DNA from: Escherichia coli
Lineage (GTDB): Bacteria > Pseudomonadota > Gammaproteobacteria > Enterobacterales > Enterobacteriaceae
DNA: 64,000 nt
Assembly: GCF_003018255.1 (NCBI RefSeq)
Contig: NZ_CP027440.1
Strand: one strand, 5' to 3'
The notes below the pieces were generated by a model that did not search any database, had not been told where the DNA came from, and was given only the letters and a program-made list of their open reading frames with translations. A program made the translations under genes and the position numbers. Shown piece after piece: positions 22,650 to 37,120 of this stretch; within the stretch, counting starts at the first letter, position 1; the number at the start of each line of letters is the position of its first letter.

Positions 22650-23585
22650 TTAAGCGTAAAATTTCAGACGATCAGCCAGTAAATCAACAAAGCCCTGACG
22701 ATCAACATCGACCATTACGGTGGCATTCGGTTTATTGCCAGTCAGATAATAATAATCAACAACCGTCATACCCTGGGTATATTTCCCTTGTGTTTCCACG
22801 CCAACCCAGCGCTCAACAGTGGTAAACAACTCCGGTTTCAACAGCCAGGCGATGGTGCATGGGTCATGCAGTGGTGCGCCGACAAAGCCCCATTTTTCGT
22901 CTTTATGATATTCGAGGAAGAAATCCAGCAGTTCGGCAACAATGGTTGAAACAGGGTTGCCAATCGCGCGGAAACGCTCAGTGTCTTCAACGTGGATTTG
23001 TGCTTTGTGAGTAACATCCAGACCGGCCATCACCACCGGAATTCCTGACTGGAAGACAATTTCTGCCGCTTCCGGGTCAACGTAAATATTAAATTCAGCC
23101 GCAGGCGTCCAGTTACCAAGCCCCATTGCGCCGCCCATAATCACGATACGGGCAATTTTGCTATGCAGTTCCGGGTGGCTATTGAGCAGCAAGGCAACGT
23201 TAGTTTGCGGTCCGGTTGAAACAATGGTGATAGGTTCCTCACTTTCACACAGCGTTTTCGCCATCAGCTCCACCGCCGTACAGTTTTGCGGTGCGAACGT
23301 CGGTTCCGGTAATGCCGGGCCGTCGAGACCGCTTTCGCCGTGCACATTGTCCGCAATAATCAAATTACGCATTAACGGTTTTACCGCGCCGCCTGCTACC
23401 GGAATATCGGTGCGATTAAGCAAGGTCAGCATACGCAGAACATTGCGTAAGGTTTTTTCTGGTGTCTGGTTTCCGGCGGAAGACGTAATTGCTTTGACAT
23501 CAAGCTCTGGTGAGGCGAGGGCAAGAACTATTGCGATAGCGTCGTCATGACCTGGGTCGCAATCTAACAGAATTGGCAGTGCCAT
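22650..23585 (-). CDS. rihA: pyrimidine-specific ribonucleoside hydrolase RihA (311 aa)
   Basis: Track ORF is N-extended; known start [15 protein letters not shown] at 23585. Confidence 0.92.
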
Positions 23586-23702
23586 TGTTGCTCCTTGTTG
23601 TGTGCTTCTTTGCGACAAGGGTACCGCTAGGATGTAACAGATACGAGGAGCGAAACGATAAAGCGTGAGATGGCGCGCACTTGGGTATGCGCGCCAGAGT
23701 GA

Positions 23703-24428
23703 TTAATGCAGGATTTTCGCGAGGAAGTCTTTTGCGCGGTCCGATTTCGGATCATCGAAGAAAGCGTCTTTCGGCGAGTCTTCGACAATTTTACCCTCGT
23801 CCATAAAGATCACCCGATTCGCCACTTTACGGGCAAAGCCCATTTCGTGGGTCACCACCATCATGGTCATTCCTTCGTTCGCCAGTTCCACCATCACGTC
23901 CAGCACTTCGTTGATCATCTCCGGATCCAGCGCCGATGTCGGTTCGTCGAACAGCATGGCAATAGGATCCATACACAATGCGCGAGCGATCGCCACACGC
24001 TGCTGCTGACCGCCGGAAAGCTGCGCCGGAAACTTATTGGCATGTGCGGAAAGCCCGACGCGCTCCAGCAATTTCAATGCTTTTTCACGAGCCGGCGCTT
24101 TATCGCGTTTAAGCACTTTCACCTGCGCCAGGGTCAGGTTTTCGATAATCGACAGATGAGGGAACAGCTCGAAATGCTGGAATACCATCCCGACGCGGGA
24201 ACGCAGCTTTGCCAGATCGGTTTTCTTGTCGTTAACCACGATGCCATCGACGGTGATTTCACCTTGCTGCACCGGTTCGAGGCCGTTGACGGTTTTAATC
24301 AGCGTTGATTTGCCGGAACCAGACGGGCCGCAAACCACCACCACTTCGCCTTTTTTCACTTCGGTTGAGCAGTCGGTCAGCACCTGAAAGTGACCATACC
24401 ATTTTGAAACATTTTTCAGGGTAATCAT
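23703..24428 (-). CDS. gltL: glutamate/aspartate ABC transporter ATPase GltL (241 aa)
   Basis: ORF track; Walker [10 protein letters not shown]. Confidence 0.95.
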
Positions 24429-25102
24429 TATGCTGTCCTTCTTTTCAAGTAGCTGACCAACAACGACGCGCTAAGGCTAATAACGAAATAAACAAATCCG
24501 GCAAACAGGATCATCTCAACCTGCGTACCATCACGCTCACCAATGGTTGAAGCGGTACGGAAGAAATCGGCCAGAGATAACACATACACCAGCGAGGTAT
24601 CCTGGAACAGTACGATGCCCTGAGTGAGCAGCAGCGGCACCATCGCGCGGAAAGCCTGCGGCAGAATAATCAGTTTCATCGACTGCCAGTGAGTCATCCC
24701 CAACGCCAGCGCGGCGCTCGACTGACCACGGGAAATACTTTGAATACCGGCACGGATAATCTCTGAATAGTAGGCCGCTTCAAACATCGAAAACGCCACC
24801 ATTGCCGAAATTAAACGGATATCATTTTTTGGCGATAATCCCAGCACGTTTTGCAGAAATCCCGGCACAATCAGGTAAAACCACAGCAAAACCATGACTA
24901 AAGGAATCGAGCGGAATACGTTAACATAGGCTTTGGCAAACCACGCAACAGGCGCAAAGCTGGACAAGCGCATCACCGCCAGCATGGTGCCCCACAAAAT
25001 ACCAATCACCACTGCCGTGACGGTGATTTTCAGCGTGATCACCAGCCCGTCGAGCAGATATGGCAGGGAAGGAACAATGGAACTCCAGTCAAACTCGTAC
25101 AT
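24428..25102 (-). CDS. gltK: glutamate/aspartate ABC transporter permease GltK (224 aa)
   Basis: ORF track; 1-nt overlap with gltL. Confidence 0.94.
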
Positions 25103-25842
25103 TATTTGCCCCCCATGTTGCCGGGCAGACGAACTTTACGTTCAACCAGCGTCATCACCAGCATGATAAAAGCGTTAATCAATACATACGCCAGCGTGAT
25201 GGCGGTAAACGACTCCCAGGCGTGGGCCGAGTAATCGAGCAATTTACCCGCCTGCGCCGCCATATCCACCAGACCGATAGTCGAGGCGATGGCGGAGTTT
25301 TTCACCAGGTTCATCATCTCTGAGGTCATCGGCGGGACGATAACGCGATAAGCATTAGGCAGCAGTACGTAGCGGTAAGCCTGCGGTAGCGTCAGACCCA
25401 TCGCCAGCGCGGCATTTTTTTGCCCACGCGGCAGCGACTGAATAGCGGCGCGTACCTGTTCGCAAACACGGGCGGCGGTAAACAGCCCCAGGCAGAGCAT
25501 GGATGAAAGGAAAAACTGAATATTGGGATCCAGCTCTGCCTTAAACCACATGCCGATTTTCTCTGGCAGCAGCTCCGGGATCACCAGGTACCAGGTAAAG
25601 AATTGCACAATCAACGGCACGTTGCGGAACAGTTCGACATACAACGTACCCAGACCGGAGAGAAAACGGTTTGGAACGGTACGTAAAATGCCGAAAAATG
25701 AACCGACGAGGAAAGCGATAATCCAGGCGCAGATCGACAAAGCGATCGTCACCTGAAAACCACTCCAGATCCAACCAAGATAGGTGGTGTTGCCGAACGG
25801 GGCTTGTTGTAAAAAAATACCCCAGTTCCAGTCTATAGACAT
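25102..25842 (-). CDS. gltJ: glutamate/aspartate ABC transporter permease GltJ (246 aa)
   Basis: ORF track; SD GGAG 7 nt upstream. Confidence 0.94.
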
Positions 25843-25854
25843 AAATCTACTCCA

Positions 25855-25889
25855 GAAAAAAGAGGGTAGCAGCGTTAACTGCTACCCTC
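25855..25889 (-). terminator. intrinsic terminator in the gltI-gltJ spacer (SroC 3' end)
   Basis: 11-bp stem gagggtagcag / ctgctaccctc (25862-25889), loop cgttaa, U6 on the minus strand (plus A-run 25856-25861) running into the gltJ SD. Confidence 0.8.
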
Positions 25890-26015
25890 GAAGATTGTTA
25901 CCCAGCGTATTGCGGTTTTCAGGCCCGATGGGGAACGACCACCAGGCGTATAGTCTGTCCGTGCTACGTAACAATCGAGAGGGCTGGAATTTCCGCCCCT
26001 GGTTCTTGTAATTAG
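25855..26015 (-). ncRNA. sroC: SroC sRNA region (processed from the gltI-gltJ spacer); ends approximate
   Basis: gltI-gltJ spacer ending in a minus-strand intrinsic terminator; SroC is known to derive from this spacer. Confidence 0.55.
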
Positions 26016-26920
26016 TTCAGTGCCTTGTCATTCGGTTCTTTGAACAGTGCTTTCATTTCGTCTGACAGTTCGAAATTCATGTTCAGGTTTTTCGGCGGAA
26101 TTGGATTTTTGAACCACTTATCAAACCATTTTTCCGCTTCACCGGAGGTCTGCACCTGAGCGATGGTATCATCCATCAGCTTTTTGAACTGCGGATCGTC
26201 TTTACGCAACATGCAACCATAGGCTTCCTGAGACTGCGGCTTGCCGACGATTTCCCAGTTGTCTGGTTTCTTCGCTTTCGCACGTTCACCGGCCAGCAGA
26301 GCATCATCCATCATAAAGGCAACGGCACGACCGCTTTCCAGGGTACGGAAAGAGTCACCGTGATCTTTGGCGCTGATGATGCGCATATTCATTTTTTGCT
26401 CTTCATTCAGTTTGTTGAGCAAAACTTCAGAGGTGGTGCCGGAAGTGACGACTACGGCTTTGCCTTTCAGGTCGGCAAAATCTTTGATATCGCCGCCCTT
26501 TTTGGTCAGCAGGCGCGTACCGACCACGAAAATAGTGTCAGAGAAAGCCGCCTGTTTTTGGCGTTCGGCATTGTTGGTGGTAGAACCGCATTCAAAATCG
26601 AAAGTGCCGTTTTGCAGCAGTGGAATACGGTTTTGTGAGGTGATCGGAATCAATTTCACCTGTAAGTCTGGTTTGTTGAGTTTCTTTTTCACTGCTTCAA
26701 CAATGGCGTTGGAGTAATCCTGCGAGTAGCCCACCACTTTTTGCTGATTGTCGTAATAAGAGAAAGGTACTGAAGATTCACGGTGACCGACGACAATCAC
26801 GCCGTTTTTGGCGATTTTGTCCAGCGTACTGCCTGCTGCCGGGGCGGCGTCATCTGCCTGTGCCAGTCCTGCGGAAAGCGCCAGGGCCAGGATTGCTGTG
26901 GCAGGTTTACGTAATTGCAT
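26012..26920 (-). CDS. gltI: glutamate/aspartate periplasmic binding protein GltI (302 aa)
   Basis: Track ORF is N-extended; known start MQLRKPATAILALALSAGLAQA at 26920 with SD AAGGAG. Confidence 0.93.
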   Translation of the reverse strand: MQLRKPATAILALALSAGLAQADDAAPAAGSTLDKIAKNGVIVVGHRESSVPFSYYDNQQKVVGYSQDYSNAIVEAVKKKLNKPDLQVKLIPITSQNRIPLLQNGTFDFECGSTTNNAERQKQAAFSDTIFVVGTRLLTKKGGDIKDFADLKGKAVVVTSGTTSEVLLNKLNEEQKMNMRIISAKDHGDSFRTLESGRAVAFMMDDALLAGERAKAKKPDNWEIVGKPQSQEAYGCMLRKDDPQFKKLMDDTIAQVQTSGEAEKWFDKWFKNPIPPKNLNMNFELSDEMKALFKEPNDKALN

Positions 26921-26963
26921 ATCCAACTCCTTTATCTTCTGCGTTAAGAACGCATGGATACCC

Positions 26964-26984
26964 GTTGTGAGTGTTTGTGTTGTT
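26964..26984 (-). promoter_or_regulatory. C/A-rich element in the gltI 5' UTR, candidate GcvB pairing site
   Basis: mRNA sense AACAACACAAACACUCACAAC about 45-65 nt upstream of the gltI AUG. Confidence 0.5.
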
Positions 26985-27374
26985 ATCATCTGCAACTTTA
27001 TTGTGCAGTGTTGTGCTTGTTAGGTAACATTTAGTTTGGCTAAATGTAAAGATATTGCTGTTTTATTGTTTGTTTTTGCGAGATGCGCCGCACCATTCCG
27101 AAGCAAAATTCTTAAATCGCACCTTTTTGGTGCTACCGCTGATTTGTGGTGGTGCAACCCGGTTGCGTCGCGGCTGATTTCATTGCTTACACAGTAAATA
27201 AAGCAACTTACATGCCAAAAAATACTTATAGGTGAATTAATTACGATTGTAATGTTAGGCTGAAATAGTCATATTTCGGACAGGGTTATCTTTTCGGCAT
27301 GGGACGTTTGCCGGGATGATAACTGCACACGGGAAAAATGCTTTTTACCTGTCTTTTCAAGGAAGAATCACCTT

Positions 27375-29252
27375 ATGTCTGCATCTTCGGTTAAGCCGTT
27401 AAATGTTCAATTACCCGCAATAACCCTTATCCTTTTTGCGCTCTGTGTTGGGATATTTTGTTACCTCGCACAATGGATGAGTTATGAAGAAGTCGATCAA
27501 TCCGCACTTATCCATCTCGGTGCTAACGTTGCTTCTCTCACGTTGTCGGGTGAATCCTGGCGCTTATTGAGCAGTGTCTTTCTGCACAGCAGTGTTTCTC
27601 ATTTGCTGATGAATATGTTTGCACTCCTGGTGGTGGGGGGAGCGGTGGAACGTATTCTGGGGAAATGGCGACTCCTGATTATCTTGTTATTCTCCGGCAT
27701 CTTTGGTGGGCTGATCAGCGCCTGTTATGCGTTACGCGAAAGTGAGCAGATAGTCATCAGCGTTGGGGCATCCGGGGCAATTATGGGAATAGCGGGCGCT
27801 GCGATAGCAACACAGCTTTCTTCAGGTGCGGGTACACACCATAAAAACCAGCGGCGAGTATTTTCTCTGTTGGGTATGGTGGCGCTGACACTGTTGTATG
27901 GTGCCCGGCAAGCAGGAATAGATAACGCTTGCCACATTGGCGGCCTGATTGCGGGGGGCGCGTTGGGTTGGCTGAGTGCGCGTTTAGTTGGGCAAAATCG
28001 GCTCGTTACGGAAGGCGGGATTATTGTTGCGGTCACTCTTCTTCTGACCGGGACTATCTGGTTTGTGCAGCAGCAGATTGATGAATCAGTTTTACAGGTC
28101 AGGCAAAGCCTGCGTGAAGCGTTTTATCCGCAGGAGATTGAACAAGAGCGACGACAAAAAAAGCAGCAGTTAGTGGAGGAGCGCAACGCCCTCAGGGAAA
28201 CATTATCCGCTCCGGTAAGTCGTGAGCAGGCCAGTGGTGATTTACTCGCTGAGATTGCCGATATCCATGATATGGCGATCAGTCGGGATGGTAATACGTT
28301 GTATGCCGCAATTGAAAACACCAACAGCATTGTTGTTTTCGACCTCGGACAAAAGAAAATCCTGCATACCTTTACAGCGCCCATAGCGAAAGAAAAGTCA
28401 GTCAAACATTGTGGTGGCTGTAAAGATCAGGGCGTCAGATCGCTGGCATTAAGCCTGGATGAAAAGTTGATTTATGCGACTTCATTTGAAGCGAATGCAG
28501 TATCGGTCATTAACGTGGCGACGGGGGAGATTATTCAGTCGATTACCACCGGCGCCCATCCTGACAGCCTTATCCTCTCGCGTGATGGCACAAAAGCCTG
28601 GGTGATGAATCGCACCAGTAATAGTGTGTCAGCCATTGATCTGGTGACTTATCAGCATGTGACGGATATCCCGCTGGAGAAATACGACGGGACGGGGACG
28701 AGCGGTAAACCAGGCGCCTGGGTTATGGCACTTTCCCCGGATGAAAAAACATTGTTGATACCCGGTATGGTCAGAGGCGACATTGTACGCATCAATACCA
28801 TCACGCATCAGAAAGAAGACTTTCCCACAGGTGATGCGCGTGGTATCGTTTCTGCGATGGGATTCCGACCAAAAAATGGCGAGATTATTTTTGCCGATAG
28901 CCAGGGGATTTCACGTATAAGCGTAGGGGATCAACAAGCCAGCATTATGACGCAATGGTGTAGCAGGAGCGTTTATTCCGTTGAGGGTATTAGCCCGGAC
29001 GGTCAATATTTAGCGTTGGTGTCATATGGCCTGCAAGGTTATGTCATCCTGCTCAATATTAATGCCGGGCAGATTATTGGCGTTTATCCTGCCAGCTACG
29101 TTAATCACCTTCGTTTTTCAGCGGATGGTAGAAAGATATTTGTTATGGCGAAGAACAGGTTAATCCAAATGGACAGGACGCGCTCGCTTGATCCGCAGGC
29201 AATTATTCGGCATCCCCAATATGGCGATGTGGCTTGTATCCCTGAACCGTAA
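27375..29252 (+). CDS. rhomboid-family intramembrane serine protease fused to a C-terminal beta-propeller-like repeat domain (625 aa); accessory gene
   Basis: ATG 27375; GlpG-like TM2 H71/H76/N80 then GGAVE; GASG with Ser133 (nt 27771-27773); CHIGG with His187 (nt 27933-27935); predicted 7th TM helix; C-terminal [L/I/F]S-x-DG-type repeats. Confidence 0.8.
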   Translation: MSASSVKPLNVQLPAITLILFALCVGIFCYLAQWMSYEEVDQSALIHLGANVASLTLSGESWRLLSSVFLHSSVSHLLMNMFALLVVGGAVERILGKWRLLIILLFSGIFGGLISACYALRESEQIVISVGASGAIMGIAGAAIATQLSSGAGTHHKNQRRVFSLLGMVALTLLYGARQAGIDNACHIGGLIAGGALGWLSARLVGQNRLVTEGGIIVAVTLLLTGTIWFVQQQIDESVLQVRQSLREAFYPQEIEQERRQKKQQLVEERNALRETLSAPVSREQASGDLLAEIADIHDMAISRDGNTLYAAIENTNSIVVFDLGQKKILHTFTAPIAKEKSVKHCGGCKDQGVRSLALSLDEKLIYATSFEANAVSVINVATGEIIQSITTGAHPDSLILSRDGTKAWVMNRTSNSVSAIDLVTYQHVTDIPLEKYDGTGTSGKPGAWVMALSPDEKTLLIPGMVRGDIVRINTITHQKEDFPTGDARGIVSAMGFRPKNGEIIFADSQGISRISVGDQQASIMTQWCSRSVYSVEGISPDGQYLALVSYGLQGYVILLNINAGQIIGVYPASYVNHLRFSADGRKIFVMAKNRLIQMDRTRSLDPQAIIRHPQYGDVACIPEP

Positions 29253-36416: not shown

Positions 36417-36491
36417 TGGCTGGGGTACGAGGATTCGAACCTCGGAATGCCGGAATCAGAATCCGGTGCCTTACCGCTTGGCGATACCCCA
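36417..36491 (-). tRNA. glnX: tRNA-Gln (anticodon CUG), 75 nt
   Basis: Full match to the tRNA-Gln cloverleaf with CCA end; anticodon loop UUCUGAU. Confidence 0.95.
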
Positions 36492-36528
36492 ACTGGGTGC
36501 ACTTACAAGGTAAGCGTCTTGAATAAAT

Positions 36529-36603
36529 TGGCTGGGGTACGAGGATTCGAACCTCGGAATGCCGGAATCAGAATCCGGTGCCTTACCGCTTGGCGATACC
36601 CCA
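36529..36603 (-). tRNA. glnV: tRNA-Gln (anticodon CUG), 75 nt
   Basis: Identical copy of the preceding tRNA-Gln(CUG). Confidence 0.95.
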
Positions 36604-36651
36604 ACAAATTGGTTTTTGAATTTGCCGAACATATTCGACACATTCAGAATT

Positions 36652-36728
36652 TGGTGGCTACGACGGGATTCGAACCTGTGACCCCATCATTATGAGTGAT
36701 GTGCTCTAACCAACTGAGCTACGTAGCC
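36652..36728 (-). tRNA. metU: tRNA-Met elongator (anticodon CAU), 77 nt
   Basis: Match to GGCUACGUAGCUCAGUUGGUUAGAGC...CCA, anticodon loop CUCAUAA. Confidence 0.95.
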
Positions 36729-36743
36729 AGATTGTTTCTTCGA

Positions 36744-36818
36744 TGGCTGGGGTACCTGGATTCGAACCAGGGAATGCCGGTATCAAAAACCGGTGCCTTA
36801 CCGCTTGGCGATACCCCA
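36744..36818 (-). tRNA. glnW: tRNA-Gln (anticodon UUG), 75 nt
   Basis: tRNA-Gln body with anticodon loop UUUUGAU. Confidence 0.95.
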
Positions 36819-36852
36819 ATAACCGGGCGGTGAACCGCTTATTCGAAGAATA

Positions 36853-36927
36853 TGGCTGGGGTACCTGGATTCGAACCAGGGAATGCCGGTATCAAAAACC
36901 GGTGCCTTACCGCTTGGCGATACCCCA
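36853..36927 (-). tRNA. glnU: tRNA-Gln (anticodon UUG), 75 nt
   Basis: Identical copy of the preceding tRNA-Gln(UUG). Confidence 0.95.
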
Positions 36928-36950
36928 TCCGTACAACGCTTTCTGGTGAA

Positions 36951-37035
36951 TGGTGCGGGAGGCGAGACTTGAACTCGCACACCTTGCGGCGCCAGAACCT
37001 AAATCTGGTGCGTCTACCAATTTCGCCACTCCCGC
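36951..37035 (-). tRNA. leuW: tRNA-Leu (anticodon UAG), 85 nt
   Basis: Long-variable-arm class II tRNA, anticodon loop AUUUAGG, CCA end. Confidence 0.95.
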
Positions 37036-37043
37036 AAAAAAGA

Positions 37044-37120
37044 TGGTGGCTACGACGGGATTCGAACCTGTGACCCCATCATTATGAGTGATGTGCTCTA
37101 ACCAACTGAGCTACGTAGCC
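37044..37120 (-). tRNA. metT: tRNA-Met elongator (anticodon CAU), 77 nt
   Basis: Identical to metU; first tRNA of the operon. Confidence 0.95.

Follow-up and report, generated by a model that had tools for sequence, protein, structure and literature searches.

The region between gltI and gltJ in this strain of Escherichia coli almost certainly encodes SroC itself, a small RNA that is processed from the gltIJKL mRNA, sponges the small RNA GcvB, and ends at a leaky terminator inside the operon. The window analysed here is a stretch of 64,000 nucleotides from contig NZ_CP027440.1, and all positions refer to it. The SroC locus, its biogenesis, the leaky terminator and the sponging of GcvB have all been described already, and nothing in the identity of the RNA is new. 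According to the papers that cite it, the RNA was discovered in 2003 (Vogel et al., 2003, via PMC4474525 and PMC9438474). The sequence itself shows the identity of SroC, its folding and its terminator, the two sites of pairing, the GcvB target in the gltI 5´ UTR and the conservation across species; processing, Hfq dependence, GcvB decay, terminator leakiness and 3´ ends are carried over from experimental work on Salmonella and on E. coli K-12. The locus is organized as follows:

26012–26920, minus strand: gltI, periplasmic glutamate/aspartate-binding protein of 302 amino acids (NCBIfam NF008063, 666 bits, cutoff 375), whose mRNA is the parent of SroC
25854–26016, minus strand: SroC small RNA, 163 nt as curated in K-12 (Rfam, identity to b4763 and K-12 term-seq)
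25102–25842, minus strand: gltJ, permease of 246 amino acids, ATG at 25842–25840 (NCBIfam amino-acid ABC permease families)
24428–25102, minus strand: gltK, permease (NCBIfam NF011687 GltK, 479 bits, cutoff 318)
23703–24428, minus strand: gltL, ATPase (open reading frame list, NCBIfam and RefSeq)

When the whole window is compared to Rfam, sroC (RF00369) is placed at positions 26016 to 25854 on the minus strand with 172.6 bits, the gathering score being 45 (E-value 2.5e-36). The match is not truncated and spans the complete model (positions 1–163 of 163). The preliminary description, made from the letters alone, had spoken of an SroC-like RNA; the full-length match identifies it as SroC proper. 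It had also suggested aligning the spacer to annotated SroC, and the two do align, with 162 of 163 nt shared with the curated K-12 ncRNA sroC (b4763). In K-12 MG1655, sroC has the same position relative to gltI and gltJ: at 686681–686843, it shares the final 5 nt of gltI and leaves 11 nt to the start of gltJ. This extent corresponds exactly to 25854–26016 of the window. The limits first proposed, 25855–26015, were thus right to within 1–2 nt of the curated ones. The gltI coding sequence (RefSeq, 909 nt) is translated from 26920 and ends in CTG AAC TAA with the stop codon at 26014–26012. The 5´ end of SroC therefore sits within the last gltI codons and the RNA is not purely derived from the 169-nt spacer. 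The earlier idea of a spacer RNA released by termination holds for SroC as the product, but its 5´ end lies in the gltI reading frame and is generated by RNase E (PMC4474525).

The 501 nt around the spacer are present in 5421 of 5426 complete E. coli genomes, several of them 100% identical, and in a genome identical across this query RefSeq names the reading frame starting at 25842 GltJ. PGAP/RefSeq genomes that are identical across the spacer carry only gltI and gltJ there and no ncRNA, so that among the records examined the sRNA is annotated only in K-12. PGAP-annotated E. coli genomes thus leave SroC unannotated despite a 172.6-bit Rfam match. A 75-aa open reading frame on the plus strand (25784–26011), antisense to SroC, was considered and rejected, as it lies over an RNA gene that is structured and conserved and shows no sign of coding for a protein.

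Several features in the surroundings of the operon may be recorded in their own right. On the gltI side, between gltI and lnt, a 625-aa reading frame (27375–29252, plus strand) combines an N-terminal rhomboid protease domain with C-terminal beta-propeller repeats; RefSeq names it “rhomboid family intramembrane serine protease”, and K-12 has only IS5D at this place. The gene occurs in 3237 of the 5426 complete E. coli genomes, and its divergence is unusual for the species, with 1657 genomes at 90–95% identity and only 73 at 99% or above. On the gltL side, rihA (~22650–23618) is directly followed by ybeL and leuS. K-12 has a block of ~8 kb with ybeQ, ybeR, djlB, ybeT, ybeU, djlC and hscC between ybeL and rihA, and the window is without these Sel1, DUF1266, J-domain and Hsp70 genes. 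Further away, positions 4602–5050 (plus strand) match the Rfam cspA-thermoregulator with 136 bits, above the gathering score of 78, over the 5´ UTR and coding sequence of a 69-aa cold-shock protein flanked by pagP-like and crcB-like reading frames. From this synteny we take the gene to be cspE rather than cspA, in which case the thermoregulator assignment may reflect only sequence similarity within the csp family. The seven tRNA genes at 36420–37120 (minus strand; Met-Leu-Gln-Gln-Met-Gln-Gln by the annotation of an identical genome), between ubiF and asnB, form an ordinary cluster that is the same as metT-leuW-glnUW-metU-glnVX in K-12.

The 3´ part of SroC and the start of gltJ are closely packed:

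25862–25889, minus strand: intrinsic terminator hairpin, GAGGGTAGCAG-TTAACG-CTGCTACCCTC, with an 11-bp Watson-Crick stem and a 6-nt loop
25856–25861, minus strand: U6 tract directly after the stem, followed by CT at 25855–25854
25850–25853, minus strand: gltJ Shine-Dalgarno sequence GGAG, 2 nt past the U-tract, followed by TAGATTT (7 nt) and the ATG at 25842

The hairpin folds at -21.3 kcal/mol and is the top-ranked of 10 terminator-like sites in a 3-kb scan in which 3.4 were expected. In that scan the stem is counted as 12 pairs with a closing T.G (G.U) pair and a 4-nt loop, and 7 of the pairs are G-C. The GC-rich 11-bp stem and U6 on the minus strand, proposed beforehand at the same coordinates, are thereby confirmed. 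Its U-tract had further been said to run into the gltJ ribosome-binding site; GGAG and the ATG at 25842 were correctly placed, but two nucleotides separate the U-tract from GGAG and the elements do not abut. The 3´ end of SroC has been attributed to a conserved “leaky Rho-independent terminator” in the gltI-gltJ spacer (Miyakoshi, Chao and Vogel, 2015; PMC4474525). Because the terminator is leaky, one promoter gives rise to both monocistronic gltI/SroC and full-length gltIJKL (PMC4474525), in line with the proposal that gltJKL expression needs readthrough.

A simple DNA pattern that required GGTCGTTCCCC was used to collect homologous spacers, each species being represented by one genome. Ninety-two of them align to the spacer of the window at 70–99% identity, 87 of these have a recognisable gltJ start, and 83 distinct sequences were used for counts of base pairs. 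A T-run of 6–9 nt directly follows the stem in 87 of 87 species (8 nt in 67), and the terminator core GGGUAGC/GCUACCC is invariant in 83 of 83 sequences. The T-run ends 12–13 nt before the gltJ ATG in 85 of 87 species of Enterobacteriaceae, with the Shine-Dalgarno sequence 1–3 nt past the run; given this fixed spacing, the layout from U-tract to ribosome-binding site is a conserved feature of the family and not a peculiarity of the window. The hairpin itself comes in different sizes. In most genera (Salmonella, Citrobacter, Enterobacter, Klebsiella, Kosakonia and others) it is short, GGGTAGC-GCT-GCTACCC, and folds at about -10 kcal/mol. In Escherichia (E. coli, E. albertii, E. whittamii and relatives) a 7-nt insertion, AGTTAAC, has turned the old loop into stem, resulting in -15 to -21.6 kcal/mol and a doubling of hairpin stability. 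Kluyvera has independent hairpin expansions of 8–10 nt (-17 to -20 kcal/mol). In three species, large insertions are located between the tip hairpin of the central SroC domain and the terminator (~120 nt in Enterobacteriaceae bacterium RIT691 and one further species, ~40 nt in Enterobacter sp. Cy-643). All three keep the GcvB sites and the layout of terminator and Shine-Dalgarno sequence. A truncated form of SroC has been reported for Yersinia and Serratia.

The authors of PMC4474525 did not decide if termination between gltI and gltJ is subject to regulation. The conserved spacing and the strengthened terminators of Escherichia and Kluyvera bear on this question, and we consider them modest leads rather than discoveries. 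One conceivable, on balance unlikely, extension is that the juxtaposition of terminator, U-tract and gltJ ribosome-binding site is functional, such that Hfq or SroC-associated factors tune both gltJ translation and termination, and that the 7-nt insertion in Escherichia and the expansions in Kluyvera have re-set the GltI:GltJKL ratio and the output of SroC relative to Salmonella. On the readthrough mRNA, the hairpin and U-tract may constitute an internal Hfq-binding module that borders the ribosome footprint on its 5´ side.

With a folding energy of -65.7 kcal/mol (z = -6.0; none of 200 shuffled sequences as good), the 163-nt RNA is made up of SL1, the long domain SL2 and the terminator, in agreement with the Rfam consensus structure:

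25980–25999, minus strand: SL1 (SroC nt 18–37), present in the minimum-free-energy and centroid folds, with the same region paired in the Rfam consensus
25893–25976, minus strand: SL2 domain (SroC nt 41–124), closed by an invariant GAUU/AAUC helix

Across the 83 distinct species sequences, 87% of cells pair compared to 38–51% when the partners are slid by 1–3 columns. Double-sided changes occur in 19 of 51 pairs, compared to 8–15 in the slid controls, and are concentrated in the stem at the tip of SL2, which presents the loop UCGUUCC. The pairs of SL1 are mostly kept. The SL2 tip hairpin (25947–25923) covaries strongly, with exchanges between GC, AU, CG and UA at 25946–25941 paired with 25924–25929. 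The sole difference from K-12 falls into this stem. SroC nt 75 (window 25942) is G here and A in K-12; it pairs with U89, and the A-U pair of K-12 thus becomes G.U within the stem. This G.U pair is unique among the 83 sequences, the others having G-C (36), A-U (30) or C-G (13) at this position, and from the sequences it resembles a transitional stage of a compensatory exchange.

The fold also bears on the possibility that the spacer works as a regulated attenuator, in which pairing of a CCCUC/UCGA strand with the 5´ strand of the terminator (UCGAGGG), or a bound factor, would switch termination, SroC output and gltJKL. Regulation of this kind was raised as a possibility in PMC4474525, where conserved nucleotides outside the GcvB sites were noted, and the 5´ strand of the terminator is indeed complementary to the 3´ strand of SL1, both being near-invariant. 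We nevertheless consider it improbable. In folds of the nascent transcript, the alternative pairing has a median probability of 0.05, the value also obtained for this strain, and no more than 9 of 82 species are above 0.5; forcing the pairing costs a median of +6.8 kcal/mol, and +9.2 kcal/mol here. Since neither strand of the alternative pairing varies, covariation cannot support an antiterminator. An attenuator or riboswitch-like element would call for a terminator and an antiterminator that exclude each other, are similarly stable and are conserved or covary, and the alternative pairing does not fit this pattern.

Two further structures around the gltJ start were considered and rejected. A hairpin in the readthrough mRNA that would sequester the Shine-Dalgarno sequence and the AUG (UUCUGG.GUAGAU...GUCUAU...CUGGAA) has a local energy of -9.0 kcal/mol, which is not unusual (z = -0.92). 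Of 54 distinct sequences, only about half can form its inner stem, and its outer stem is conserved only since the Shine-Dalgarno region and the Trp-Asn codons are conserved for other reasons. A long-range pairing of CCAG (26002–25999) with the Shine-Dalgarno region is poorly kept across species.

SroC contains two sites for pairing with GcvB, and gltI carries a target of GcvB:

25953–25960, minus strand: GcvB-pairing site GGACAGAC (SroC nt 57–64), complementary to GcvB nt 156–163 (R3/SL4)
25932–25938, minus strand: GcvB-pairing site UCGUUCC (SroC nt 79–85) in the SL2 loop, complementary to GcvB nt 13–19 (SL1)
26963–26996, minus strand: C/A-rich target of GcvB R1 in the gltI 5´ UTR, ending 42 nt upstream of the AUG

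We name the pairing sites by sequence, as the text of PMC4474525 is ambiguous on the labels BS1 and BS2; the energies and a remark on phoP and R3 suggest that BS2 is the site for GcvB R3. GGACAGAC makes a perfect 8-bp Watson-Crick match to K-12 GcvB (-12.6 kcal/mol, and -16.2 kcal/mol in a wider context). It is invariant in 86 of 86 distinct species sequences, a result to which the search pattern contributed no more than the last 2 nt. UCGUUCC makes a perfect 7-bp match (-9.0 kcal/mol, and -14.3 kcal/mol in a wider context) and is unpaired with a probability of 0.99 in SroC alone; its conservation was discarded as evidence, being circular, because the collection pattern required GGTCGTTCCCC. 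Four Watson-Crick runs of at least 7 nt exist between SroC and GcvB, compared to 1.4 expected by chance. The other two (SroC nt 101–108 with the GcvB terminator and SroC nt 146–152 with GcvB nt 114–120) involve stable stems in both RNAs and are probably due to chance. With such numbers complementarity alone is not decisive, and the weight comes from the invariance of GGACAGAC and from the coincidence with sites tested by mutation. In Salmonella, SroC base-pairs with GcvB at two sites of 7–8 nt, 14 nt apart in SroC (PMC4474525), and the same distance is found here. SroC C60 is opposite GcvB G160 and C84 opposite G14. These residues align with the published C63 and C87, which implies an offset of +3 in the numbering of Salmonella SroC; by homology to that numbering, the 5´ end of SroC may be up to 3 nt further upstream, at ~26019. 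A study in E. coli assigned the SroC sites on GcvB to SL1 and R3/SL4, as found here, and in stationary phase SroC made up as much as ~70% of the chimeras with GcvB (PMC9299463). The E. coli homologues are reported to be functional (PMC4474525). SroC also sponges MgrR, and repression of fliE and flhBAE is listed among its activities (reviewed in PMC9438474).

The regulatory circuit includes the parental gene. GcvB represses gltI through a C/A-rich site in its 5´ UTR (PMC4474525). Pairing of this target with GcvB nt 63–92 is predicted at -33.9 kcal/mol, compared to a mean of -22.2 kcal/mol for shuffled sequences, none of 300 of which reach the observed value. The targeting of gltI by GcvB, mentioned in the preliminary description, is thus well founded. 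The sponging of GcvB is likewise in accordance with PMC4474525, with the nuance that SroC triggers decay of GcvB by RNase E rather than titrating it passively.

These observations also speak to the idea that the hairpin and U-tract are only an attenuator within the operon that sets the GltI:GltJKL stoichiometry, with the ~160-nt RNA as an inert decay intermediate. A role in stoichiometry is real and stated in PMC4474525, and the invariant terminator core and the U-tract conserved in 87 species could be explained by a purely cis-acting role. A terminator, however, needs neither GGACAGAC, invariant in all 86 sequences, nor a covarying SL2 stem. In Salmonella the idea has been refuted: deletion of sroC or the changes C63G/C87G stabilise GcvB, from 1.7 to more than 15 min, and the compensatory changes G160C/G14C in GcvB restore the regulation lost by SroC C63G/C87G (PMC4474525). 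We therefore give an inert RNA very little chance.

Equally unfavoured is a reading of the stem-loop as an exonuclease barrier that stabilises the mRNA at a 3´ end made by processing, rather than as a terminator of transcription. ABC operons commonly rely on a hairpin that selectively stabilises the first cistron (PMC4474525), and K-12 data provide a trace of trimming. Among the minus-strand 3´ ends that the term-seq tables of Adams et al. (2021; PMC7815308) assign to sroC are 686683, given as 14 nt upstream of gltJ, and 686689. Transferred by the offset between K-12 and the window, the former is at 25856, the last U of U6 and the main 3´ end, and the latter at 25862, the last base of the stem, which shows that exonucleolytic trimming occurs. 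The proposed RNA is thus present in K-12, where the main end is 1 nt from the estimate of 25855 that had been offered for checking by term-seq. The position of this end on the last U, scored “No” in the column that we take to denote Rho dependence, and the T-run directly past the stem in all 87 species point to termination, and the authors of PMC4474525 explicitly contrast gltI with the exonuclease-barrier model. A processing barrier in place of a terminator is therefore highly unlikely. The same tables contain a weak 3´ end on the opposite strand (K-12 686719, window 25892, plus strand; PMC7815308), just past the hairpin as seen from that side. A weakly expressed antisense transcript may be stopped or stabilised by the hairpin, which is not followed by a T-run on the plus strand.

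SroC accumulates as a stable fragment of ~160 nt that has a 5´ monophosphate and no transcription start site. Its biogenesis needs RNase E acting by the 5´-P-dependent pathway, and Hfq is needed for correct cleavage (PMC4474525). Independent transcription from a promoter of its own in the end of gltI, in the manner of type I 3´-UTR sRNAs such as DapZ and MicL (PMC4474525), deserves next to no credence in view of the 5´ monophosphate and the dependence on RNase E and its 5´-P sensor, and a simple scan found no sigma-70-like promoter on either strand of 24500–27500, a weak negative since the scan is insensitive and failed to flag the gltI promoter as well.

With SroC as the product of the gltIJKL mRNA, the following sequence of events can be proposed. 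Transcription from the single gltI promoter would mostly stop at the terminator (25889–25856), resulting in monocistronic gltI mRNA, and a fraction would read through into gltJKL, the ribosome-binding site of which starts 2 nt past the U-tract. Such partial readthrough would provide more of the periplasmic binding protein than of the membrane components. RNase E, dependent on the 5´ monophosphate and guided by Hfq, would then degrade the gltI mRNA from its 5´ side, and the tightly folded last ~160 nt would remain as stable SroC. By pairing through GGACAGAC and UCGUUCC with R3/SL4 and SL1 of GcvB, SroC would induce decay of GcvB by RNase E. The loss of GcvB would in turn de-repress the regulon of amino-acid transporters, including gltI, and close a feed-forward loop. 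The experiments behind this scheme are mostly from Salmonella, where the terminator hairpin is about half as stable as in Escherichia, and the degree of leakiness may be different in E. coli.

The closest relative of the RNA described here is SroC of K-12, with which it shares locus, strand, length, fold, terminator, GcvB sites and parental operon, the difference being the one substitution at 25942. Compared to SroC of Salmonella, on which most experiments have been made, the Escherichia copy has AGTTAAC in the terminator loop, extending the stem from ~7–9 to 11–12 bp and the hairpin energy from about -10 to about -21 kcal/mol. More widely, SroC resembles the type II 3´-UTR sRNAs that associate with Hfq, such as CpxQ, SdhX, NarS, MalH and OppZ, which are made by RNase E, use the terminator of the host transcript and have no promoter of their own. 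Like these, it acts in a pathway related to the parental gene. Unlike these, it arises at a leaky terminator inside an operon rather than at the one that ends it, and its primary target is an sRNA (GcvB, and also MgrR) rather than mRNAs (PMC9438474). In this respect it is reminiscent of the sponges formed by the chbBC spacer for ChiX and by 3´ETS-leuZ for RyhB and RybB, where a by-product RNA pairs with an Hfq-dependent sRNA, lowers its activity and provides cross-talk between mRNAs. The outcome for the sRNA is different: the ChiX trap exposes ChiX to PNPase, whereas SroC directs GcvB into decay by RNase E, independently of the 5´ end, through two short additive sites and without being co-degraded (PMC4474525).
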